Positions 1,738 through 38,997 of a DNA stretch of 40,131 bases are shown piece after piece. The notes beneath the pieces were generated by a model that saw only the letters and a list, made by a program, of their open reading frames with translations, was not told where the DNA came from and did not search any database. Positions within the stretch are counted from its first letter, which is position 1, and each line of letters begins with the position of its first letter. This DNA comes from a virus, in the UHGV virus genome UHGV-1363679. One strand, written 5' to 3'. A program made the translations under genes and the position numbers.

Positions 1738-2874
1738 TTACTTGCCATATTTATTTAGAGCTTCTACCAGATTTGTTTTAGCTTTTTTTGTAACATGAGT
1801 ATAAATTTTTAAAGTTGTTTCCGTGTCAACGTGGCCTACACGTTCCATTATTGCTTTTACTGGTACATTTAATTCTGCAAGTAGTGAAATATGAGAATGT
1901 CTAAAAATATGACTTGATATAGTTTTGTTTATTTTATTTTTACCTAGACTTTCATTAGCTTTCTTTAGAGAGGCATTAAATGAATTAACTTGAATTGGTT
2001 TGCCCGTTTTGCCAACAAATAGATAATTTGTTTGCTCTTTGAATTTTATTTCTCTTTCTAAAATTAACTCTTCGATTATTTTCACAGCTCTATTTGATAA
2101 TTCTACTTTCCTGAATGATGCTAGAGTTTTAGGTAATTCTTTTGTAGCGTTTTTATAACCGTTAGAATAATCCAGAGTTCCATTAACTAAAATAGCATGT
2201 TCATTTTTTACATAATCATTTATAGTAAGACTAATTGCTTCACCAGCTCTTAATCCAGTTAAATACATAAACTCTGCTAAACGACCATGATGGACACTTT
2301 GAAATGTAGAATAATAATAGTTTAATAATTGATAAACCTCTTTCTCTTCTAGGTATTTACTTTCTATATTTTCAAAATTTTCTTTTGTTAGTGGGGGTTT
2401 AACAACTTTCACTCTATTGATAGGATTTTCATCAATCATTCCCATGTCTTGTGCATAAGTGAAGGACATGTTAAGCACACTTTTGAATTTTTTCTTATAC
2501 TCCCACGAATGCGGTAAATCATTAATAAAGTCTTGGAAAAATTTTGTATCTGTGTTTCTTATGAGTACATCAACATTCATATTGGAAAATATATATTTTA
2601 AAATTTTTCCGTAAGCTTTAACTGATGTTTTCCTAATAGATAATTGATGTTGTTGCCACCAGCTATTTAAGAGATTCTCTAATGATACTTTTTGTTGATC
2701 TTTTTTCTCCATTCGATTATTAATCTTATCCTGTAATTCCATCATCGCTTGTTTTTTTGCTTGGTTAGACTTCGAATTAAGTGTAACTGAAACACGTCGA
2801 TATTTTTCCGTGTACGGATCTTTATATCGCTCAAAGTATTTAAATTTTCCATTAGGAAGTTCCTCGATCCACAA
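1738..2874 (-). CDS. int: Phage tyrosine integrase (site-specific recombinase, phage integrase family).
   Basis: C-terminal catalytic region ...IFRHSHISLLAELNVPVKAIMERVGHVDTETTLKIYTHV shows the R..HxxR..Y pattern of tyrosine recombinases. The N-terminal LWIEELPNGKFKYFERYKD motif is typical of phage integrases. Likely TTG start at 2874, preceded by AAAGGAG with a 7-nt spacer. The ORF-track's longer 5' extension is probably not translated. Confidence 0.9.
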   Translation of the reverse strand: MWIEELPNGKFKYFERYKDPYTEKYRRVSVTLNSKSNQAKKQAMMELQDKINNRMEKKDQQKVSLENLLNSWWQQHQLSIRKTSVKAYGKILKYIFSNMNVDVLIRNTDTKFFQDFINDLPHSWEYKKKFKSVLNMSFTYAQDMGMIDENPINRVKVVKPPLTKENFENIESKYLEEKEVYQLLNYYYSTFQSVHHGRLAEFMYLTGLRAGEAISLTINDYVKNEHAILVNGTLDYSNGYKNATKELPKTLASFRKVELSNRAVKIIEELILEREIKFKEQTNYLFVGKTGKPIQVNSFNASLKKANESLGKNKINKTISSHIFRHSHISLLAELNVPVKAIMERVGHVDTETTLKIYTHVTKKAKTNLVEALNKYGK

Positions 2875-2941
2875 TGTTAAAACTCCTTTCGAATGTATGT
2901 TCTCAAGTATTGAAAAAAGAAAAGCCCGAAGGCCATTCCTT

Positions 2942-3139
2942 TTACTTAAACAAATCCCAAAAGCTAAAAGTTGTTTTATTATATACTTTATTATACATAG
3001 CTTTCTTGGGGTTCTTAATGAAACCAGTTCCTTTTTGCCCATAACCAGGAATTACTGCTTTTTTAAGCTTACGTTTAGCTTTTCCAGTAGTACGAGCACT
3101 TATTGATTTTTTTATACTTGGTTTACGCATTCCTACTTT
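2942..3139 (-). CDS. Small, very basic hypothetical protein (~65 aa, Lys-rich) between int and the lipoprotein gene.
   Basis: ORF-track 2942..3151. An internal ATG at 3139 is preceded by GGACGTG. Product MKVGMRKPSIKKSISARTTGKAKRKLKKAVIPGYGQKGTGFIKNPKK... No recognisable domain. Confidence 0.3.
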   Translation of the reverse strand, partial: KVGMRKPSIKKSISARTTGKAKRKLKKAVIPGYGQKGTGFIKNPKKAMYNKVYNKTTFSFWDLFK

Positions 3140-3157: not shown

Positions 3158-4042
3158 TTATATATTATTTAAAGCATAAGTTATTTCTGAATCGGTAAAA
3201 CCTTCATATGACAACTGGTCTTTTAATTTTTCTTTAGAGATATCCATACTTTCCATATACTCTTTAGCCTTATTTACCGCTTGTTTATTCCAATTGGTAG
3301 ATATATTTTCTACTGCAAAGTTTGCTGCTTCATCAGAAAATTTTTCATACTGAAGTTGTTTATATAAGCTAATTTTTGAAAAAGAGCTGTGGTTAATATA
3401 CTCTTCAGCTTTTATCTTTGCATTTGTGTATTCCAGAGGAACTTTACTAGATTGCGAGGAAGAAGCAGTTGTTTCTTGCGCCTTTTTATCCTTACCAGCT
3501 AGTACATCTGCTAATAATTCGTCTAAATCATTACTATTTAAATCATTGTTAAAAACAAAAGTGACAAATTTATTATCATCTATTGAATTTTCAGATTTAC
3601 GAGTATATTTTTTTGAATTATCTGGAATACTATTTTCTAAAACAAGAATTAAATCATCAAACTTTTTTTCTACTACGCTATTTGCAAGTCTCATAGTAGA
3701 AAAAATGGTTAGCGCAGAAGGCTGTTTTTCATCGGTTTTTGTGAACAAAGCAAAAGCAATCGGTGACAAACTTTCTTTAAATATTTCAACTTTTAGATTT
3801 TTTGATGTCAGATAGGAATCATACTTATTAGTAAGTTCATACTTACTTTCGGTTAATTCATTTAAATTAGATTCTATTACTTTTTTTGAATCTATTCCCA
3901 ATTTATTTTCAGGTATTTTGGTAGTTTGTTTTTTTTCATGCGTTTCCGCTTCTTTTGTTTTATCATCGTTACCACTGGCACTACAACCTGATATAAAAAT
4001 AATAGGTAGTAGTAGTGAAGTTAAAATAACCCCTTTTTTCAT
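3158..4042 (-). CDS. Ltp-family (host cell surface-exposed lipoprotein) protein, a candidate superinfection-exclusion lipoprotein.
   Basis: Signal peptide plus lipobox (LLLPIIFISGCSASG). The C-terminus carries two tandem ~45-aa repeats (AEEYINHSSFSKISLYKQLQYEKFSDEAANFAVENISTNW / AVNKAKEYMESMDISKEKLKDQLSYEGFTDSEITYALNNI) matching the Ltp repeat (…FS..L..QL.YEGFs...A.YAv.n). Its position between int and the repressor matches ltp of S. thermophilus phage TP-J34. Confidence 0.7.
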   Translation of the reverse strand: MKKGVILTSLLLPIIFISGCSASGNDDKTKEAETHEKKQTTKIPENKLGIDSKKVIESNLNELTESKYELTNKYDSYLTSKNLKVEIFKESLSPIAFALFTKTDEKQPSALTIFSTMRLANSVVEKKFDDLILVLENSIPDNSKKYTRKSENSIDDNKFVTFVFNNDLNSNDLDELLADVLAGKDKKAQETTASSSQSSKVPLEYTNAKIKAEEYINHSSFSKISLYKQLQYEKFSDEAANFAVENISTNWNKQAVNKAKEYMESMDISKEKLKDQLSYEGFTDSEITYALNNI

Positions 4043-4106: not shown

Positions 4107-4133
4107 TTCCGTGTTGTAGCACGGGGCTTTTTT
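4107..4133 (+). terminator. Plus-strand-oriented intrinsic terminator hairpin (CCGTG-ttgtag-CACGG followed by GGCTTTTTT), lying between two minus-strand genes.
   Basis: Hairpin plus T-run read from the sequence. On the minus strand the same element is A-run then hairpin, which is not a terminator. Confidence 0.4.
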
Positions 4134-4605
4134 ATTGTAAATTTGTATTTAAAATCATGACTGATAAATCATTAAACTCGAAAATTCTTCCTTTATAAAA
4201 ATGGGTATCACCAAATTTTTGTCGATAATAGGCGAGTACATTTTTGAGCGTTTCAACGTCTACCCCTAAAAATTCAGCACACGTGTAATGATTACTGAAT
4301 CCTGATTCTGAACACTTAATTAGATCATCCAAAGTGACTAATTGTTCTAAAGCATATTGTCTAGCTTTTAGTTCTTGTTTACGATTTTCTAAACAATCTT
4401 GGTTTAATATGTCACCAAACGATGTATCGTGGTGGCCAAGTTCCTCAGCTAGCACATTTCTTTTTTTAATTAGACTCAACGATTTTTCAATATAAATTCT
4501 ACCATCACGGTACAAACCATAGCATCCAGTATTTTGAAACAAATCTGTTTCAATAACTGGTGCTTTTTTCTGTACCTCTGACACCAACAGTTCATATTCG
4601 TTCAT
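4132..4605 (-). CDS. ImmA/IrrE-family (DUF955) metallopeptidase-like protein, co-transcribed with the repressor.
   Basis: Degenerate zinc-peptidase region LAEELGHHDTSFG. Position immediately downstream of the XRE repressor matches the ImmR/ImmA arrangement. Start chosen at ATG 4605 (CAGGAGTA-tttt-ATG, MNEYELLV...) rather than the longer overlapping ORF-track start. Confidence 0.65.
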   Translation of the reverse strand: MNEYELLVSEVQKKAPVIETDLFQNTGCYGLYRDGRIYIEKSLSLIKKRNVLAEELGHHDTSFGDILNQDCLENRKQELKARQYALEQLVTLDDLIKCSESGFSNHYTCAEFLGVDVETLKNVLAYYRQKFGDTHFYKGRIFEFNDLSVMILNTNLQ

Positions 4606-4621
4606 AAAATACTCCTGAAAA

Positions 4622-5146
4622 TTATTCTTTATCATCTGATGCATCATCAAAAAGATGTTTACATTCTTTTTGCTTCCTATCATAATCAGCATCCACTTTA
4701 TCTAGAAATTGATTAATTTTAAGTTTCTCTTCATCAGTAAATACTTTATCAGGGTCTGGTGAATGCGCAGCTAAAGTATCGTATTTTTTCTTGTTAATGT
4801 TAACTACATTATTAGAAGCTTTGTTTTGTTGCACCAATTGCTCTTTAGCAGTCTCATATACAATTTTTTGTCTTTCTGGCTCTAGAATATTATAAATAGA
4901 TTCTAGAGATGAAGGGTCACTGTTTTCTTTGTAAGTAGTATCGATATCACTTTTTTTGATTTTAAAATAATCAGCTATTCTTTGGATTACGCCATGAGAA
5001 GGGTTTGACCTAAGATTCATATAATCGCTCATTGTTGATGGAGATATTCCGATTTCTTCAGCTAATTTTTTTTGTGTAATATTACTTTCTTTAAGATACT
5101 TTTTTATGTTAGTTGCTATTATCTTATTACGTTGTTTGTCTTCCAC
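4622..5146 (-). CDS. CI-like lysogeny repressor (XRE-family HTH).
   Basis: N-terminal HTH_XRE (KKLAEEIGISPSTMSDYMNLRSNPSHGVIQRIADYF). GTG start at 5146 preceded by AAGGAGGTG. Divergent from cro across the operator region. Confidence 0.85.
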   Translation of the reverse strand: MEDKQRNKIIATNIKKYLKESNITQKKLAEEIGISPSTMSDYMNLRSNPSHGVIQRIADYFKIKKSDIDTTYKENSDPSSLESIYNILEPERQKIVYETAKEQLVQQNKASNNVVNINKKKYDTLAAHSPDPDKVFTDEEKLKINQFLDKVDADYDRKQKECKHLFDDASDDKE

Positions 5147-5857: not shown

Positions 5858-6610
5858 ATGGCAGACTTAGTAATTATGAAAAATGAACAAGCAGTAACAA
5901 GTAGTTTACAAATTGCAGAGACATTCAATAAAAATCATCAACATGTTTTGCGCGACTTGGATAATTTGAAAGAGGGTGTCCAAAATTGGACAGACCTATT
6001 TTACGAAGATACCTACATTCATCCGCAAAACAAACAATCCTATCGCCAAGTTATCATGAATCGCGACGGCTTCACTTTATTAGCAATGGGGTTCACTGGT
6101 CAAAAGGCATTGCAGTTCAAACTGAAATATATTGAGGCTTTTAATCAAATGGAAAATCACATCAAGGAACAATTAGATACGTCAACTTTAAGTCCAGAAC
6201 TACAATTCATGAATAGCGTAGTCCAATCACTCGCAAAACAAGAAATAGCGAACAAACGTCTTGAAAACAAGGTAGATAACATCACGGATATTATCGCTTT
6301 AAATACAACTGATTGGCGCAAAGAATGCCGTAGCCTGGTTAATAAGATGGCAAAAACACAAGGTGAATTTGGTGCTTATCAAGAAATACAAACAGCGATT
6401 TATAACGAAGTAGATCGTCGAGCTGGCTCATCGTTGAAAACACGTTTAACCAATTTAAAAAATCGCATGGCATACGAAGGTGCTTCGAAAACCAAAATCA
6501 GGAATACAAATAAATTAGATGTCATAGACAATGACAAACGACTAAAAGAAATCTATTTAGCAGTTGTTAAAGATTTTGCTATTAAATACGGAATCTGGAA
6601 GGAGAATTAG
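5858..6610 (+). CDS. Phage antirepressor / regulatory protein, Rha family (Phage_pRha N-terminal domain).
   Basis: MADLVIMKNEQAVTSSLQIAETFNKNHQHVLRDLDNL... matches the Rha N-terminal signature. Start at ATG 5858 (AGGAGGAAGAAA-ATG), not the ORF-track 5735. Confidence 0.8.
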   Translation: MADLVIMKNEQAVTSSLQIAETFNKNHQHVLRDLDNLKEGVQNWTDLFYEDTYIHPQNKQSYRQVIMNRDGFTLLAMGFTGQKALQFKLKYIEAFNQMENHIKEQLDTSTLSPELQFMNSVVQSLAKQEIANKRLENKVDNITDIIALNTTDWRKECRSLVNKMAKTQGEFGAYQEIQTAIYNEVDRRAGSSLKTRLTNLKNRMAYEGASKTKIRNTNKLDVIDNDKRLKEIYLAVVKDFAIKYGIWKEN

Positions 6611-6611
6611 G

Positions 6612-6908
6612 ATGGATATTGAAGAAAAACGAGCAGTAAAGGAATTCTTGAGTACTATCGTTTCAGAAGAATCAGCCAACCAATTGGTAAATCTGGAAGG
6701 GCAAAATTTAAACGATGTGTACTATACGTTACAAGAACAAATGGAATACGAAGGTCTTGCTCCTGAAGAACCGACAGTAAAAAGTGTTATTAATGAAATT
6801 CGGGAGTTACTAGAAATTAATCTAAGTGATGATTTTGGGATTAAAGACTATCAAGACCTTATTTATCAAAAAGTAGATATGTTAAGTAGCATATTAGGTA
6901 TCGAATAG
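6612..6908 (+). CDS. Hypothetical early protein (98 aa).
   Basis: ORF-track frame. ATG 6612 preceded by AGGAGAATTAGG. Confidence 0.45.
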   Translation: MDIEEKRAVKEFLSTIVSEESANQLVNLEGQNLNDVYYTLQEQMEYEGLAPEEPTVKSVINEIRELLEINLSDDFGIKDYQDLIYQKVDMLSSILGIE

Positions 6909-6922
6909 GAGGGAATTTGAAA

Positions 6923-7081
6923 TGAATGAAGAAGGAAAAGAAAAAATACGCGAACTAGCGTTGGAAATTGTAGAGATATTAAAAGAACAAAGCAACCCTA
7001 ATACAAAAATTGAAATCAGCATAGACAGAATCGAACAGACAAGTGTTGACTGGTCAGAGCCAACACCTGAATGGAATTAAT
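6923..7081 (+). CDS. Small hypothetical protein (~52 aa).
   Basis: Manual: GGAGGGAATTTGAA-ATG, MNEEGKEKIRELALEIVEILKEQSNPNTKIEISIDRIEQTSVDWSEPTPEWN*. Confidence 0.3.
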
Positions 7082-7296
7082 TAGTATCCATGTCTGTAAG
7101 GGTATCTTTTGATGTTTTGATGGTAGTAGCTGCCCTTTGAAGGGGACGACATTAGACCATCGTAGACATATTGAGGTACACCTAAATGCGTGTATGCTCC
7201 GTTGTGGAATTGGACCGTCAGCTCTTGGCTAGAAGAGTCATATCCTGCAGCAACCATATTGCTAGAAGAAACAGGAATCATATCCATGCTATTCAC
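7081..7296 (-). CDS. KTSC-domain protein (71 aa), encoded antisense to the early operon.
   Basis: VSSSNMVAAGYDSSSQELTVQFHNGAYTHLGVPQYVYDGLMSSPSKGSYYHQNIKRYPY fits the KTSC domain pattern (SSN..AVGYD...L.V.F.NG..Y.Y.GVP..VY..L..A.SKG.YF...I...Y.Y). RBS AAGGCGGTG upstream of ATG 7296. Confidence 0.6.
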   Translation of the reverse strand: MNSMDMIPVSSSNMVAAGYDSSSQELTVQFHNGAYTHLGVPQYVYDGLMSSPSKGSYYHQNIKRYPYRHGY

Positions 7297-7492
7297 CGCC
7301 TTAATTTATTTTAGCACAAACATGCTAATAACTAATTATATCAAAATTTGGTAATCAGAGGAGAATTTTAAATGTCTAAAGAAAATATCCAAGATAAATA
7401 TCATGAATCTTTAAAGGAACGGAGTATCACAGACCCATACAAAGAACTAGCTGAACGTCTCAACGGAGTCAAACAAAGTTAGGAGTGTCAAT

Positions 7493-7678
7493 GTGGCTTA
7501 TACAATAGAACAAGAAAGCTGGATACTCAACCAAATCAAAAAAGAGCGGAAACAGCTACAAGATGATAGAGCAGCGCTTAGACAATCAGAACAACTGACC
7601 GAAGGAAAAACATATCAAATTGAAAGAGAACTTGAATTTTTAAGATACTTAGAGATTCAAAATAGAATCCATGTATAA
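7493..7678 (+). CDS. Hypothetical small protein (61 aa, GTG start).
   Basis: AGGAG 7 nt upstream of GTG 7493. Confidence 0.4.
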   Translation: MAYTIEQESWILNQIKKERKQLQDDRAALRQSEQLTEGKTYQIERELEFLRYLEIQNRIHV

Positions 7679-7689
7679 GGAGAAATGAA

Positions 7690-7862
7690 ATGAGAAAAAT
7701 TTATAACTTAAGAAGAATTGCAGTATTGCTAATCGTTTTCGGATTGGGGTTGATAGTGGGTGGAAACTTTAATCCAATCATCCAAAATGTGTATATTGGA
7801 TTGTTCATTATTTGGACATTATTTTATGACTTAGCTCTTGAAGATAGAGAGGTAAATAAATG
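7690..7862 (+). CDS. Small membrane protein (57 aa).
   Basis: Manual: AAGGAGAAATGAA-ATG, MRKIYNLRRIAVLLIVFGLGLIVGGNFNPIIQNVYIGLFIIWTLFY... has two hydrophobic segments. Confidence 0.4.
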
Positions 7863-7970
7863 ACAAGGAAAGAAAAATTACAGCAAACGAAAAAACTTGC
7901 TGATTTATGGTACCAGCAACAAAAGGGGCAGATATATATTACTCAACAAAAAAAGAGAAGAGGTATTTGA

Positions 7971-8273
7971 ATGCCAAAATTATATGATTTTAAAAAAGCT
8001 AAAGATCTAATCGATGTCGAAGTGGATAATGCAGATGTTGATAAAGTATGTTTAGGAACTCTCTCAGATTACTTTTGGACTGCCGAAACTGTTTGGGAAA
8101 AAGGCAAATATATTATTGACTTGGGAAAAGTAAAGACTATTGCTGGAATTCCAGGAAGTGATTGGGATACTCCAATTATCAATATTTATTATTCTGATGG
8201 AAAAGAGAAGAAAGTCGAATGTTTCAAAGAGGTAACAAGCGATGAATTTGCTGATTTTTGTCGGAAGTTATAA
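7971..8273 (+). CDS. Hypothetical protein (100 aa).
   Basis: ORF-track. Compact operon context. Confidence 0.45.
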   Translation: MPKLYDFKKAKDLIDVEVDNADVDKVCLGTLSDYFWTAETVWEKGKYIIDLGKVKTIAGIPGSDWDTPIINIYYSDGKEKKVECFKEVTSDEFADFCRKL

Positions 8274-15693: not shown

Positions 15694-15885
15694 ATGCTAA
15701 GTTATCCAGAAGTTTATATTTTAGGGCGACAAGTCGATGGCGTTTATGTTGAGTATCTGAGAAGAACGTTTTACACACTATCAGAAGCTAAACGTAATGC
15801 AGATTTTTATAACAAACATTATAATGGCGAATGGAAAATTTTAAAATACGGTAGACCGATAACAGTATTAGGAGATGATGGTTAG
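15694..15885 (+). CDS. Hypothetical protein (63 aa).
   Basis: ORF-track. RBS GGGAGGATAAGCA-ATG. Confidence 0.4.
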   Translation: MLSYPEVYILGRQVDGVYVEYLRRTFYTLSEAKRNADFYNKHYNGEWKILKYGRPITVLGDDG

Positions 15886-16293
15886 TTGCGGACGTCAACA
15901 TTTAACTATATCAAAGATATTTTAGGAGACTATTATAAAACCGATGACTATATTCGGCAACGAGAGTTAGAACTACGACATCCGTATAAAGAAACGGATA
16001 TCAATGGCGATATTCAAGGCAAAGGGACTAATTCGGCTACGACTGAACGGTTAGCTATTACTATCGCTACAGATCGTCGGTTATGGAATTTAGAAAGGAA
16101 CCGCAATATTATCCAAAGTTGCCTAGCAGAATCGGATGAACAGACGCGGGTAATCATTGAAGAGCTTTACTTAAAAAACAGACCAACACTCACTTTATTA
16201 GGGGTAGCTCAACAGTTATTTATCAGTAAAAACACAGCCTATCGATTAAGAAATACTTTTTTTGAAAGAGTCGCAGAAGAATTAGGATTGTAA
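15886..16293 (+). CDS. ArpU/RinA-family late-gene transcriptional activator.
   Basis: The C-terminal sigma-region-4-like HTH ends ...LGVAQQLFISKNTAYRLRNTFFERVAEELGL (compare RinA ...ISRLAEELGEE). The N-terminal DYxxxDDYIRQRELEL block is also RinA-like. Position just upstream of the packaging genes. Confidence 0.7.
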   Translation: MRTSTFNYIKDILGDYYKTDDYIRQRELELRHPYKETDINGDIQGKGTNSATTERLAITIATDRRLWNLERNRNIIQSCLAESDEQTRVIIEELYLKNRPTLTLLGVAQQLFISKNTAYRLRNTFFERVAEELGL

Positions 16294-16461
16294 TGGGAAT
16301 TTGTTGGGAATTTTAACTGTAGTCAATATGGTAAATTAGTAGTGTGAGAAGTATAAGGAAATCAAAAATAAATATTATCTCGTTGCTAACACTGATCACA
16401 CTATCACTCGCAAACTGATACGTTCTCTTATTAGAGGGGAGGTGAAGAGCCTTCTCTTTTT

Positions 16462-16491
16462 TTCTATAGGGTTGCGAGTGCTGCTATTATA
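16462..16491 (+). promoter_or_regulatory. Candidate promoter for the moron gene: weak -35 TTTCTA, 18-nt spacer, extended -10 TGcTATTAT.
   Basis: Read from the sequence. Extended -10 TGn present. RBS AGGGGTG 6 nt before ATG 16543. Confidence 0.35.
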
Positions 16492-16542
16492 AAAACTAAA
16501 CCTTTGGTATACTTAAATAAAAAATTATCAGGGGTGCTTTAG

Positions 16543-17187
16543 ATGGAATGGTGGCAATTATGGATTCCTTTTGGTGGAACTATAGCGGGAATTTTTGCAA
16601 ATGTATATATTAATTATAGACAGACAAAGAAAAATGAAGAACTTCAAAAAGAAATAACTCAAAAACAAATTGACGCTAATTTAAAAGCAAAGGCAAGAAT
16701 AGAATGGATTACCGAGGTACGAAACTTAGTTAGTAAATATTTATCTTATCTGTTCGATATTAAAATATTGGTTAGCAGAATGCAAGATATTGAAGAGGAA
16801 TTAAGTGGTTTAGAGAAGCAAACGATTCAAGAATCAACTTATATTGATAGACAAAGGGAGTTAAAAATAAAACAATTAAAAAAAGAAGATGAATTAATGA
16901 TTTGTATACAAGCATCCATTTTAACTGCAGAAAAAATATTACTTCATTTCAGCAAAAAAGACGAGCATAAGGCTATTGAGAAAGAATTATCAGATTCTGT
17001 AAATATTATAAAAGATATAGAGGCAAGAGAAGCGAGACCAGGTTTCTACGATATGTATTTGCCAAAAACTGATAAAACTTACGCTAGTAAAATGAGAGGT
17101 TTGATTGATAATTCAATTACTCGTATACGTAATATTTTTCGTGAATATCTAAAAACTGAATGGGATAGAGCAAAAAAGGGACAATAA
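16543..17187 (+). CDS. Membrane-anchored coiled-coil protein (214 aa) of unknown function, a moron inserted between ArpU and terS. Candidate defence / superinfection-exclusion / abortive-infection factor.
   Basis: One N-terminal TM helix (WWQLWIPFGGTIAGIFANVYINY), then ~190 aa charged helical sequence with heptad-like spacing. It has its own candidate promoter and its own intrinsic terminator. Appears more AT-rich than neighbouring genes (estimated by eye). Confidence 0.6.
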   Translation: MEWWQLWIPFGGTIAGIFANVYINYRQTKKNEELQKEITQKQIDANLKAKARIEWITEVRNLVSKYLSYLFDIKILVSRMQDIEEELSGLEKQTIQESTYIDRQRELKIKQLKKEDELMICIQASILTAEKILLHFSKKDEHKAIEKELSDSVNIIKDIEAREARPGFYDMYLPKTDKTYASKMRGLIDNSITRIRNIFREYLKTEWDRAKKGQ

Positions 17188-17196
17188 GAATTATAA

Positions 17197-17226
17197 TAGA
17201 TCACTTAGTGAGTGGTCTATTTTTAT
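17197..17226 (+). terminator. Rho-independent terminator after the moron gene (TAGATCACT-tagtg-AGTGGTCTA followed by TTTTTAT).
   Basis: 9-bp stem (one G·U), 5-nt loop and T-run, read from the sequence 10 nt after the stop. Confidence 0.6.
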
Positions 17227-17254
17227 ACATAAAATTACATAGGAGGTGAATAAC

Positions 17255-17728
17255 ATGATAAGGAATCCAAAACATCAGGTTTTTGCTGATGAATGGCTGA
17301 TTGATATGAATGGTACGAGAGCGTATAAAGTCGCATATCCAAACATAAAAAAAGACACCACAGCAAGAGTGAATGCAAGTAGACTGCTAACAGATGCTAA
17401 CGTGAAGCAATATATCGATGAACAGCTAGAAAAGATGCAGAACGAAAGAGTTGCAGATGCACAAGAAGTCCTAGAGTATCTCACTAGCACCATGCGTGGT
17501 GAAAAAATGAAGGGTGTTTATAATACCGAAACAACTAATGATGAAGGGGAAATATTTACGCATCAGAAAAGCTATGAATATACTCCTAGCACTGAGGAGA
17601 GGACTAAAGCAGCCGAATTACTTGGTAAACGTCATGCGCTGTTCACTGATAAACAGGAGATTTCAGCGACTGTAAGAACAGATAAACTTGATAGTATCTT
17701 ACAGCAATTAGGTGATGAAGATGACTGA
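17255..17728 (+). CDS. terS: Terminase small subunit (Terminase_2-like).
   Basis: ...FADEWLIDMNGTRAYKVAYPNIKKDTTARVNASRLLTDANVKQYIDEQL... fits the TerS N-terminal HTH pattern. ATG 17255 is 6 nt after AGGAGGTG. The ORF-track GTG 17246 lies inside the RBS. Confidence 0.7.
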   Translation: MIRNPKHQVFADEWLIDMNGTRAYKVAYPNIKKDTTARVNASRLLTDANVKQYIDEQLEKMQNERVADAQEVLEYLTSTMRGEKMKGVYNTETTNDEGEIFTHQKSYEYTPSTEERTKAAELLGKRHALFTDKQEISATVRTDKLDSILQQLGDEDD

Positions 17729-35990: not shown

Positions 35991-37250
35991 TTGAAAAAGA
36001 AAATTTTAGTCGGAGCGTTAATCGCTCTATTTTTTATGCCTTTAAATGTATTTGCTACCAAAGGCGATCAAGGTGTTGATTGGGCCATTTATCAAGGTGA
36101 ACAAGGTCGTTTTGGTTATGCTCATGATAAATTCGCTATTGCTCAAATTGGCGGCTACAATGCTAGTGGTATTTACGAGCAGTATACCTATAAAACGCAA
36201 GTAGCAAGTGCCATTGCTCAAGGAAAACGAGCGCACACTTATATCTGGTACGATACGTTCGGTAGCATGGACATTGCTAAAACAACAATGGATTATTTCT
36301 TGCCACGTATCCAAACGCCTAAAAATTCCATTGTTGCATTAGATTTTGAACATGGAGCTAGTCCTGATGTAAACGCCAATACGGAAACAATCCTATATGG
36401 CATGCGCCGAATTAAACAAGCAGGGTACACGCCAATGTATTATTCATACAAACCTTTTACATTGCAATATGTAGATTATCAGCGAATTATTAAAGAATTT
36501 CCTAACTCTTTATGGATTGCTGCATATCCTAGTTATGAGGTAACACCAAGTCCATTGTATAACTATTTTCCAAGTATGGATGGTATTGCAATTTGGCAGT
36601 TTACATCTACTTATATTGCTGGTGGGTTAGATGGTAACGTAGACTTAACAGGTATCACTGATAATGGTTATACGGCTACTGACAAACCAGAAACGGACAC
36701 ACCAGCTATTGAGGAAGGTAAAGAAGCAGATAAAACACCTACTTCTGCAGTTGAAGTCGGTGATACCGTCAAAGTGAAATTTAATGTTGATGCTTGGGCA
36801 ACTGGTGAAGCTATTCCAGATTGGGTAAAAGGAAACAGCTATAAAGTGCAAGAAGTAACTGGAAGCAGAGTGTTGCTAGAAGGCATCTTATCGTGGATTA
36901 GTAAAGGCGATATTGAACTATTGCCAGATTCAACAACTGTTCCTGATAAACAACCAGAAGTAACACATGTGGTTCAATATGGCGATACATTATCGAGCAT
37001 TGCTTACCAATACGGTACTGATTATCAAACTTTAGCTTCGTTAAATGAATTGGCTAATCCAAACCTTATTTACCCTGGACAATTTTTGAAAGTAAATGGA
37101 TCAGCAGTAAGCAACGTTTACACGGTTCAATACGGTGATAATTTATCAAGTATTGCAGCCAAACTTGGTACGACATACCAAGCTTTAGCACAGCGAAACA
37201 GGTTAACTAATTTTAACTTAATTTATCCAGGGCAAACATTAATTTATTAG
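35991..37250 (+). CDS. Endolysin: GH25 muramidase with an N-terminal Sec signal peptide and two C-terminal LysM repeats.
   Basis: Signal peptide [24 protein letters not shown]25-like GVDWAIYQG...FAIAQIG. LysM repeats [43 protein letters not shown] and [46 protein letters not shown] start 35991. Confidence 0.8.
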
Positions 37251-37262
37251 GAGAGTGGCAGT

Positions 37263-37643
37263 ATGAAATCAGAAATAAAAAAACATATTCGTCAATTATT
37301 ATGTGATTATAAAAAAATAGAAAAACAATTAAAAAAGTATGAAGATGCATTAGTTTACCCCCAATCTTCTTTTTCTTTATACTTTGAAGAAAAGTCAAAT
37401 GAAAAAATAAGTTTGAACCAAATAGTTTTTCATAAGTTTTTTTTAAATACAGTTGAAGAGGTTTTATCAGATGCAACATCGGATGTACGTGATATTTTTA
37501 TTTCTAAGTATAAAAATGGCTATCCACGTAAAAAGAATGAAATTGTGGCCTATGAAACTTATTTAAGTTTATCAACGATTAAAAGGAGGGATAGTGAATT
37601 CTTAGAGGAATTAGCACGACAATTAGGTTGGTTAGAAGTTTGA
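37263..37643 (+). CDS. Second RinA/ArpU-like sigma-type regulator (126 aa).
   Basis: N-terminal IRQLLCDYKKIEKQLKKYEDAL parallels RinA (LCDYPNYHKQLEDLRSEI). C-terminal HTH LSLSTIKRRDSEFLEELARQLGWLEV parallels RinA ...ISRLAEELG. Confidence 0.5.
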   Translation: MKSEIKKHIRQLLCDYKKIEKQLKKYEDALVYPQSSFSLYFEEKSNEKISLNQIVFHKFFLNTVEEVLSDATSDVRDIFISKYKNGYPRKKNEIVAYETYLSLSTIKRRDSEFLEELARQLGWLEV

Positions 37644-37731
37644 GCAAAAAAAGGGTGTGTTTAGTTATAGACTTTAGATAAGGACATATGTTCTCCATGG
37701 ACGCATGGAAAGAATATTAAGGAGGGGAATT

Positions 37732-38997
37732 ATGGCAGACACATGGTTAAGTCCTCTTGCTGTTTCTTATCAAGCAACTCAAGAATGGGATGAACCTGAT
37801 TATTTGAGCGGAGGACAAGCAGGAATTCACGGAGGCATTGACTTAGCTCCAAAAGCAGGTACTAATCCACCTGTTTATTCAGCTAAATCTGGGACAGTAG
37901 AAGAGGTAGTACCAAATCATCCAATTGGTGGTAATTACATTGTTATCAGACATATGGATAACTACTGGACCTATTATGGGCATTTAGCAACTATAAATGT
38001 ATCAGTAGGACAACAAGTAACAAATCAAACGGTTCTTGGATTATGTGGAGCAACTGGGGGTGCCACAGGTATCCATCTTCATTTTGAAGTATGGCGTGGT
38101 GGTAAATGGCAGAGAATCAATCCACGAGAAGTAATTAATTTAGATGGATCTGGCAGAGACTCTAGTAATAACGGTGGCAATGGTGGAATTTATACAGGTG
38201 GAGCTTTATTAAATGCAGGAAAAAGCATTTCAGAATCAAATATTCGTCTAATCATTTCTGCTGGAAAAAAATATAATATCAAGCCAAGTTTTATGATTGC
38301 ACAAATGTTTATTGAAAGTCATTGGGGAGATCCAAGCATTTCAATTGTTGGAAGTAAAGACAATAATTGGGCAGGAATTTCAGAACCTTTTAGCGTTCCA
38401 GCTGATTTAGGAATTAATATGAGTCGTGGATCAGCAAGACCAGTTGGTGAAGGTGGTTATTATATTCATTTTGCAACCATGAACGATTTTTTTAAAGCAT
38501 ATGCATTTGTATTATCAAAAAGAAATGGCTTATATAATGTTGAAGGTGCAAATTCAATTGAAGAATACTGTAAAGGCTTATTTCGCATAGGTGGAGCAAA
38601 TTCAGACTATGCCGCGACAGGCTATCAAAATTATTTTAATATGTTAATACCAACTTATAATTCAATAAACAAACAAAATCCTGGTAAACTTGCACAAATT
38701 GATGCAAGTACTGAAGAAATTACTAATAATGGAGGACTGACAACTATGCAATGTTTATATGAACGACCAATTAATCCGAATACTGGAGCTTTAGATATAA
38801 ATGGCTCAGCAACTACAATGATGTTTTGTAATGGGGTCAATACACGACGAGTATATCATAATGATGAAATTAATATTGTTAAAGAGCTATATCGTAAAAA
38901 CAATGGAAAAGAAATCCCGGTATATTATAAAAAAGATTGGCCTAAAACTTCGCCATGGTATATTCGACTAGAGGCAATGTTTCCAGTAGTGAAATGA
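37732..38997 (+). CDS. Two-catalytic-domain peptidoglycan hydrolase: N-terminal M23 (LytM-type) peptidase, central GH73 glucosaminidase, C-terminal ~140-aa putative wall-binding region. No signal peptide.
   Basis: M23 motifs HGGIDLA...HLHFEV. GH73-like PSFMIAQMFIESHWG. Start at ATG 37732 (AGGAGGGGAATT-ATG). Confidence 0.7.
   Translation: MADTWLSPLAVSYQATQEWDEPDYLSGGQAGIHGGIDLAPKAGTNPPVYSAKSGTVEEVVPNHPIGGNYIVIRHMDNYWTYYGHLATINVSVGQQVTNQTVLGLCGATGGATGIHLHFEVWRGGKWQRINPREVINLDGSGRDSSNNGGNGGIYTGGALLNAGKSISESNIRLIISAGKKYNIKPSFMIAQMFIESHWGDPSISIVGSKDNNWAGISEPFSVPADLGINMSRGSARPVGEGGYYIHFATMNDFFKAYAFVLSKRNGLYNVEGANSIEEYCKGLFRIGGANSDYAATGYQNYFNMLIPTYNSINKQNPGKLAQIDASTEEITNNGGLTTMQCLYERPINPNTGALDINGSATTMMFCNGVNTRRVYHNDEINIVKELYRKNNGKEIPVYYKKDWPKTSPWYIRLEAMFPVVK

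Follow-up and report, generated by a model that had tools for sequence, protein, structure and literature searches.

A lambda-type moron is, by definition, a gene within a late operon that brings a promoter and a terminator of its own. The prophage proteins Ltp (Streptococcus thermophilus phage TP-J34) and Sie2009 (Lactococcus) are small and associated with the membrane; they are made by the lysogen, vary between phages, and block the genome entry of related phages. Among prophage genes, Abi-alpha in Enterococcus faecalis and PdpSau in Staphylococcus aureus are precedents for abortive infection (Abi; PMC6356687, PMC10127798). In particular, Abi-alpha (ef2833, DUF4393), from prophage 6 of E. 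faecalis V583, causes abortive infection and has a mapped promoter of its own that is constitutively active; it is widespread among the prophages of Gram-positive bacteria and occurs in chromosomal islands as well (PMC6356687); PdpSau depolarises and permeabilises the membrane upon infection (PMC10127798). Further, in the TERi locus of Listeria comK prophages, the flanks and the regulatory DNA are conserved while the cargo genes are exchanged, some of them being proven defences (bioRxiv 10.1101/2025.02.27.640495). The subject here is a gene for a 214-amino acid (aa) protein in UHGV virus genome UHGV-1363679, a stretch of 40,131 nucleotides (nt), called the window throughout, which DNA searches identify as an Enterococcus faecalis-type prophage. 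The gene lies within a mobile accessory cassette that occupies a cargo slot upstream of the terminase small subunit gene terS, and its product belongs to a large and widespread family without any prior annotation; a phage-exclusion function is tentatively proposed for it.

The mobile cassette and its cargo slot

The identical cassette occurs in different phage backbones, and related phages carry other cargo in its place. In particular, the block 16328..17649 of the window matches another collected locus at 99.6% despite a different late activator and a different terL (L005; collected loci are numbered with L and family proteins with P), and the identical protein is found between different late activators and different terminases. 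The phage isolates phiFL2A, which is plaque-forming (PMC3753634), and EFC-1 were both sequenced without the gene; the slot of phiFL2A contains about 500 nt of non-coding DNA, including a tRNA-Arg. Moreover, the ends of the insertion can be located. The gene-specific DNA begins at about 16481, right after the 3' arm of helix P2 of an upstream leader RNA, and ends with a hairpin and its T-run at 17197-17224. phiFL2A is 90% identical to the window over 17202-17249, and L009 has the same right junction beside a different terS. An extended -10 element and the terminator hairpin travel together with the gene. Overall, these observations firmly support an accessory cassette that is mobile and occupies a cargo slot, in agreement with an earlier reading, made from the letters of the window alone (the sequence-only reading), that had proposed a self-contained cassette between the late activator and terS. 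The cassette and its right boundary consist of the following features.

16461-16466 and 16482-16490, + strand: TTTCTA and TGcTATTAT, the promoter motif TTTCTA-18 nt-TGcTATTAT of the sequence-only reading (read from the sequence)
16505..16513, + strand: second candidate extended -10, TGGTATACT, with the conserved motif TG[G/A]TATACTTAA
16530..16536, + strand: ribosome binding site AGGGGTG, 6 nt 5' of the ATG (read from the sequence)
16543..17187, + strand: gene of the 214-aa protein, ATG start; predicted membrane helix at residues ~4-27 and predicted cytoplasmic four-helix bundle
17197-17219 and 17220-17224, + strand: intrinsic-terminator-like hairpin and T5, 9 nt after the stop; folding free energy (ΔG) -12.5 kcal/mol, z -3.9 against shuffles
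17225..17249, + strand: conserved right junction ATACATAAAATTACATAGGAGGTGA, which includes the terS ribosome binding site; common to phiFL2A and L009

The open reading frame (ORF), its good ribosome binding site and the clean terminator after its stop had all been noticed before, and all three are borne out. The same hairpin also stands 3' of diverged alleles of the gene (L009, L044-46, L055/56, L083, L085), and a clear terminator-like hairpin follows the family gene in 18 of 47 distinct loci. The gene had also been judged, by eye, to be more AT-rich than its neighbours; its guanine-plus-cytosine (GC) content is 29.3%, as compared to a gene mean of 34.6% (standard deviation 3.0; z = -1.76), which is the third lowest of 41 genes, and the GC content at its third codon positions is 0.20 versus 0.27. 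Thus, the AT-richness is real and modest.

The proposed promoter remains a candidate. The motif is present as described, it has the best sigma-70-like score (9.5) in the 110 nt 5' of the gene, and its -10 is conserved in L007, minus the TG; however, a promoter scan did not call it, and its -35 is only a 3/6 match. For the second candidate, TG[G/A]TATACTTAA recurs about 38 nt 5' of the ATG in the window, L007 and L001, where the upstream DNA is otherwise unlike.

The slot accepts several kinds of cargo. Across 70 instances of the leader in IMG/VR, the next element is a tRNA in 56 and a family gene in 4, where family genes are under-counted because the search pattern left out the window-type T7 variant of the leader. 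Because tRNAs are the commonest cargo, the slot is a general cargo site and not exclusively a defence hotspot. Slot tRNAs (L103-L182; L002 2358-2432; L027 3647-3860; L082, L086, L088) are often tRNA-Trp, located 5 nt past the leader helix, and also include tRNA-Glu, tRNA-Arg, tRNA-Lys and tRNA-Ser. In a Lactiplantibacillus prophage (L027), a family member shares the slot, past ArpU, with a membrane protein and with a Septu system (6136-8066; PtuA 5e-132, PtuB 6e-80), which is located about 600 nt 3' of the family gene.

A large protein family without prior annotation

An initial search found 88 homologues, from Enterococcus throughout and all called hypothetical. Profile searches extended the family to 457 clusters (E up to 1e-3, mostly Firmicutes) among 1.84 billion cluster representatives, and returned 253 matches among 5.8 billion proteins. 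Among the 120 matches listed, every named one is hypothetical and none has a Pfam domain; similarly, cluster look-ups for names gave hypothetical only, and no V583 locus tags. Members occur in species-representative genomes of Enterococcus, Vagococcus, Lactococcus, Lactiplantibacillus, Pediococcus, Sporosarcina and many Clostridia, and also in one Neisseria and one Prevotella metagenome-assembled genome. The window protein itself matches PHROG 19998, of unknown function, over its entire length (E = 9.9e-122; residues 1-214 against profile positions 1-212 of 212). Across 26 diverse members, PADLOC gave two isolated weak matches (1e-3 and 8e-3), and Pfam and NCBIfam gave nothing significant. A family profile compared to PDB sequences had a best E value of 0.027, which is coiled-coil noise, and Foldseek found no match in BFVD at E up to 1e-3.

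The AlphaFold2 prediction, calculated with 24 homologues, has a predicted local distance difference test score (pLDDT) of 80 and a predicted template modelling score (pTM) of 0.73. It is all-helical, with an N-terminal helix (residues 4-27) followed by helices at 33-91, 98-134, 140-164 and 178-211, which form an antiparallel four-helix bundle instead of the coiled-coil-like arrangement that had been expected from the sequence. The single transmembrane helix of the sequence-only reading is clear in other alleles; in the window allele, the helix is just moderately hydrophobic. In every allele, the hydrophobic helix is followed by Lys/Arg residues, which, by the positive-inside rule, argues that the bundle is cytoplasmic. 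The protein is therefore predicted to have an N-terminal membrane anchor with a cytoplasmic bundle, whose composition is near-neutral and K/E-rich (isoelectric point 8.9). A conserved His after helix 2 had raised the idea of a HEPN domain; the residue is missing from part of the family and an Rx4-6H motif is absent, and the idea was dropped.

The family architecture combines invariant, variable and swappable segments. There is a membrane helix of at least four types, then the invariant motif IDANLKAKARIEWI..VR, then a hypervariable middle with a semi-conserved LLxxF(S/G), and lastly the invariant C-terminal motif YLKxEWDKAKxG. On the predicted structure, the conserved segments (the start of helix 1 at IDANLKAKARIEWI..VR, the turn between helices 2 and 3, and YLKxEWDKAKxG) would all be found at the end of the bundle next to the membrane, opposite the variable parts, which would form the distal end. 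Further, the segments have separate histories. Relative to the window protein, P0005 is 33% identical across the N-terminus and 89% identical in the middle, and P0017 and P0033 have N-termini that are 98-100% identical and middles that are 20-31% identical. These identities show an exchange of the hypervariable middle by recombination. In some phages and genomes, two diverged paralogues also occur in tandem or within 3 kilobases (kb) of each other (L061 3833-5152; L015 4734-5528 and 7686-8465; L084 3974-4780 and 7088-7675).

One paralogue pair has copies of 249 aa and 183 aa with 18 nt between them. A further protein, P0086 (235 aa), found on a 1107-nt Logan contig, joins the N-terminal two-thirds of the family to a C-terminal part that matches PF16938; as the contig is very short, a chimera produced by assembly or a frameshift is the probable origin of the fusion.

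Family members inside and outside phages

The exact protein is present in 258 blocks of an assembly collection, where all fetched loci and source names are Enterococcus and mostly E. faecalis; among 50,697 phage records, only 3 have a detectable homologue. Across 59 IMG/VR loci, the gene is nearly always located 0-4 ORFs upstream of terS or terL, often with a 45-66 nt gap. The Ltr genes that precede family genes are of three types (RinA, DUF722/ArpU and Sigma70_r4). In E. faecium-type loci (L021, L024, L048-L053, L081), ArpU is followed in turn by a 420-450-aa protein (approximate length), a 70-90-aa ORF, the family gene, 46 nt, and terS, with short gaps and no terminator. The sequence-only reading had named homologues uniformly embedded in late operons, without their own promoter and terminator, as the observation that would speak against it; such an arrangement is found in part of the family and not uniformly.

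Other members are located outside phages. There are singletons among housekeeping genes, for example after rplS (L014), before valS (L038) and between iscS and iscU (L020). Members are also found in regions resembling integrative and conjugative elements (ICEs) and beside toxin-antitoxin-like genes, and one is in a small integrase island, adjoining an AAA_14/DUF4143 ATPase. The members outside phages argue that the function does not depend on the surrounding phage genome.

Two database records, PQ554527.1 (35192-35749) and PQ283533.1 (39443-40000), match with equal statistics (34.0% identity, 85% coverage, 89 bits). They are labelled Acinetobacter phage D2SVT and Enterococcus phage vB_ElaS_B1578; the two genomes may be near-identical, and one of the host labels may be wrong.

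Presumed activator repeats, a candidate late promoter and a structured leader

The stop codon of the upstream gene, at 16293, is followed by a gap of 249 nt before the 214-aa gene. The gap was previously considered unusual for this genome and non-coding apart from the cassette signals. However, gaps of 1360, 682, 506, 365 and 356 nt are also present, and the 249 nt are occupied by repeats, by a candidate for the late promoter, and by a structured leader that has a terminator-like hairpin of its own. The upstream gene is also not ArpU, as it had been called, and instead belongs to the RinA family, in the same Ltr superfamily as ArpU. The features that surround the cassette are as follows; terL lies downstream of terS.

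15886..16293, + strand: late-gene activator, RinA family (Ltr superfamily); NCBIfam TIGR01636, 7e-53; PHROG 36
16294-16302 and 16305-16313, + strand: two direct repeats TGGGAATTT, presumed RinA binding boxes, immediately 3' of the rinA stop (read from the sequence)
16329..16337, + strand: candidate activator-dependent late promoter with extended -10 TGGTAAATT, 15 nt after the second repeat
16339..16480, + strand: structured leader (fold prediction) with helices P1 (16339-16347/16396-16404) and P2 (16405-16415/16470-16480)
16433-16459 plus T7, to 16466, + strand: terminator-like hairpin and T7 within the leader (terminator scan)
17255..17728, + strand: terminase small subunit terS (Pfam Terminase_2, 4.9e-26); start agrees with the L004 gene call

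Most of the gap therefore consists of activator binding repeats and a conserved late-operon leader, a region that is common to phages without the 214-aa gene, where the leader (16328 onward) has variant forms. The layout is consistent, with allele-specific direct repeats, an extended -10, and then a structured RNA; each of the other collected Ltr alleles has its own 2-4 repeats at the equivalent place and a similar -10 at an equal distance. In phiFL2A, ArpU binds such repeats and terS transcription needs them, and the intergenic region between ltr and terS contains a terminator (Quiles-Puchalt et al., PMC3753634). From this arrangement, we infer a RinA-dependent late promoter upstream of the 214-aa gene, which would put the gene inside the late transcription unit. 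The location of the cassette at the regulator/terminase junction, as originally read, is thereby refined: it is at that junction, and the RinA repeats upstream place it within the late unit and not simply between operons.

The leader's helix P2 encloses its terminator-like hairpin. Across 18 distinct sequences, P2 is paired in 97.4% of cells, as compared to 33-56% when the partner is slid, and it has three compensatory pairs (double changes) together with G-U wobbles. The enclosed hairpin has a ΔG of -15.1 kcal/mol, but a z of only -1.2, and is kept in related phages. Rfam searches of 15800-17400 (E up to 1) and of nine related loci (gathering scores) returned tRNAs only and no leader family. 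The leader is likewise found in L002 (1760-1975), L007, L001 and L103-L182. The GGAGGTGA loop of the leader hairpin was also considered as a small ORF or a Shine-Dalgarno sequence, which was dropped as no plausible start codon could be seen by eye. Overall, late transcripts would have to pass two hairpins before reaching terS, which suggests an antitermination or processing element.

Proposed phage exclusion and competing explanations

The best explanation, put forward tentatively, is that the 214-aa protein is a single-gene phage-exclusion factor, of the Abi or the superinfection exclusion (Sie) kind, acting at the inner membrane face. The cassette, with its promoter-like element, ribosome binding site, ORF and terminator, is inserted between the candidate RinA-dependent late promoter with its leader and terS. 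According to the proposal, the protein would be made in the lysogen and tethered to the cell membrane by its N-terminal helix, the variable tip would recognize an incoming phage component at the membrane's inner face, and the conserved base and membrane helix would execute the response, either by permeabilising the membrane (abortive infection) or by blocking genome entry. Because of the predicted cytoplasmic orientation, any exclusion would take place at the inner membrane face and not at adsorption. A conflict system fits best because the family is hypervariable, swaps modules, forms arrays of paralogues, has copies outside phages, and is found in the company of Septu. Also in favour of exclusion are the mobility of the cassette, the terminator and extended -10 that accompany the gene, its modestly low GC content, the sequenced isolates without it, and the prophage Abi precedents. 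Further, promoter-like scores in the 110 nt upstream are higher for family genes (mean 9.2 for 69 distinct genes, versus 8.07 for 434 other ORFs) and reach 10 or more in 36% of family genes versus 8% of other ORFs. A more far-reaching possibility, held with greater reserve, is that the protein is the founding member of a new and widespread Firmicutes family of single-gene immunity proteins, whose base would act as effector or anchor and whose swappable tip would act as specificity module; temperate phages, ICEs and small islands would then spread the family via the terS-adjacent cargo slot.

Several results weigh against exclusion. The activator boxes are upstream of the gene, which is therefore part of the late transcription unit, and the commonest occupant of its slot, a tRNA, is typical lytic-cycle cargo. 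In E. faecium-type phages, about 14 of the 47 distinct loci, there is no hairpin after the gene and the distance to terS is fixed at 45-48 nt. The AT-rich region contains 9 promoter-like matches, as compared to 10.9 expected from shuffles, and the p-value of the family-wide promoter comparison is inflated because the family loci are related to each other. The window protein has no match in Pfam, NCBIfam or PADLOC-DB v2, the four-helix bundle is a generic fold that is uninformative on activity, and the N-terminal helix of the window allele has a moderate Kyte-Doolittle hydrophobicity of 1.18.

The main rival, and a serious one, is that the protein is an accessory of the phage's own lytic cycle. 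It would be expressed as the first late gene from the RinA-dependent promoter, and at the membrane it could tune lysis timing, exclude secondary infections during lytic growth, or organize a late membrane step. The gene's place between the Ltr repeats with their candidate late promoter and terS, its recurrence just before the terminase genes in the 59 IMG/VR loci, the loci without a terminator before terS, a slot that usually carries tRNAs useful for late translation, and the neighbourhood of Ltr genes from all three families are consistent with such a role. It is nevertheless considered somewhat unlikely. Sequenced relatives, including the plaque-forming phiFL2A, do without the gene; a homologue is found in very few phage records, as opposed to the exact protein's 258 assembly blocks; members reside in non-phage chromosomal and integrative-element loci; and one allele occurs with at least three types of terS, which argues that it is not co-adapted to the packaging machinery. 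In addition, the gene is far from the lysis genes, with the endolysin (35991-37250) about 19 kb away, and no holin signature was found for the window protein in Pfam or PHROG. A counter-defence factor, whose variable tip would track the variants of a membrane-associated host defence, would also account for the hypervariability and module shuffling and for the location within a temperate phage's late transcription unit; there is little chance of this, as late expression is badly timed for most counter-defence, and expression in uninfected cells is suggested by the chromosomal and integrative-element copies, which have terminators and promoters of their own upstream.

Two explanations remain. 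A factor for lysogenic conversion or host physiology that is unrelated to conflict between phages, such as a stress or signalling adaptor at the membrane, would agree with the autonomous anatomy of the cassette and with the chromosomal singletons among housekeeping genes, but it is improbable, since a hypervariable, recombining middle and tandem paralogues are more typical of conflict systems and since the strong positional tie to phage late regions is hard to account for. The resemblance of the protein to sensor domains is also generic; such domains are extracytoplasmic, whereas the bundle here is predicted to be cytoplasmic, and an output domain is absent. Alternatively, the protein could be a membrane-tethered, anti-sigma-like regulator of the adjacent RinA/ArpU activator. 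Anti-sigma domains are small helical bundles too, and in many phages the gene is directly 3' of a sigma-region-4-like Ltr gene. This is the least credible of the explanations: the identical allele follows a 135-aa RinA and a 139-aa DUF722 protein, and many members have no nearby Ltr gene, which were the grounds for ruling out the anti-sigma idea; moreover, a leader and a terminator-like hairpin separate the two genes, and in phiFL2A the Ltr protein alone sufficed for terS expression (PMC3753634).

If the protein does exclude phages, it would represent a defence family overlooked by PADLOC, Pfam and NCBIfam, and one that is common in E. faecalis and E. faecium, for which phage therapy is under development, and that extends to lactic acid bacteria and gut Clostridia. 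The natural module swaps, in which one helix is combined with different middles and the reverse, are ready-made specificity experiments, and the mapped activator-terS slot, with its conserved flanks, could be mined for further accessory genes. A role in the lytic cycle, in turn, would point to an unrecognized membrane step at the onset of late gene expression.

Other possible accessory genes in the window

Two further genes of the window are of note. On the - strand, 3158-4042 encodes a protein of 294 aa that contains a pair of Ltp lipoprotein repeats (PF07553, 9.5e-27), and lies between the integrase (1738-3042) and an ImmA-like peptidase with a cI-like repressor (4132-5146); it has both the classical position and the family of a superinfection-exclusion gene. 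It is consequently doubtful that the 214-aa gene is the best anti-phage candidate in the window, as the sequence-only reading had ranked it. Near the prophage end, an ORF of 126 aa (37263-37643, + strand) has a GC content of 26.5% (z -2.7), the lowest in the window, and does not match Pfam. The GH25/LysM endolysin (35991-37250) lies on one side of this ORF and an M23 peptidase/glucosaminidase gene (37705-38997) on the other, and it may be another accessory gene.

Comparison with known systems

Similar to PdpSau from S. aureus prophages and AbiP from Lactococcus, each of which is one protein of some 200-280 aa encoded by a prophage or mobile element, the window protein combines an N-terminal membrane helix with a cytoplasmic remainder, both predicted here. 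It differs from them in that theirs is a positively charged, OB-fold-like nucleic-acid-binding domain, whereas an all-helical bundle is predicted here; there is no sequence or PADLOC match to them; and pdpSau adjoins lysis genes, whereas the window gene adjoins terS. Abi-alpha likewise requires only one prophage gene and shares the host species, but it belongs to a different family, and DUF4393 has no Pfam match in the window protein or in 25 relatives. The genes of Ltp and Sie2009 are flanked by the integrase and the repressor, and both proteins act on the membrane's outer face, Ltp as a lipoprotein; in contrast, the window gene precedes terS, the bulk of its protein is predicted to be cytoplasmic, and Pfam does not find an Ltp domain in it.

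In its genomic organization, the locus resembles TERi, with a conserved promoter and flanks around alternating cargo. However, TERi belongs to the early module, which is on the opposite strand, and it carries small soluble terminase inhibitors, whereas the commonest cargo here is a tRNA. As with morons, the gene is variably present at its junction, has its own downstream terminator, and differs, modestly, in base composition. Chemoreceptors and histidine kinases with 4HB_MCP-type sensors place an extracytoplasmic bundle between two membrane helices and add a signalling output, an arrangement that the window protein does not have. Overall, the comparison describes a prophage accessory membrane protein and candidate exclusion factor from a previously unannotated family.

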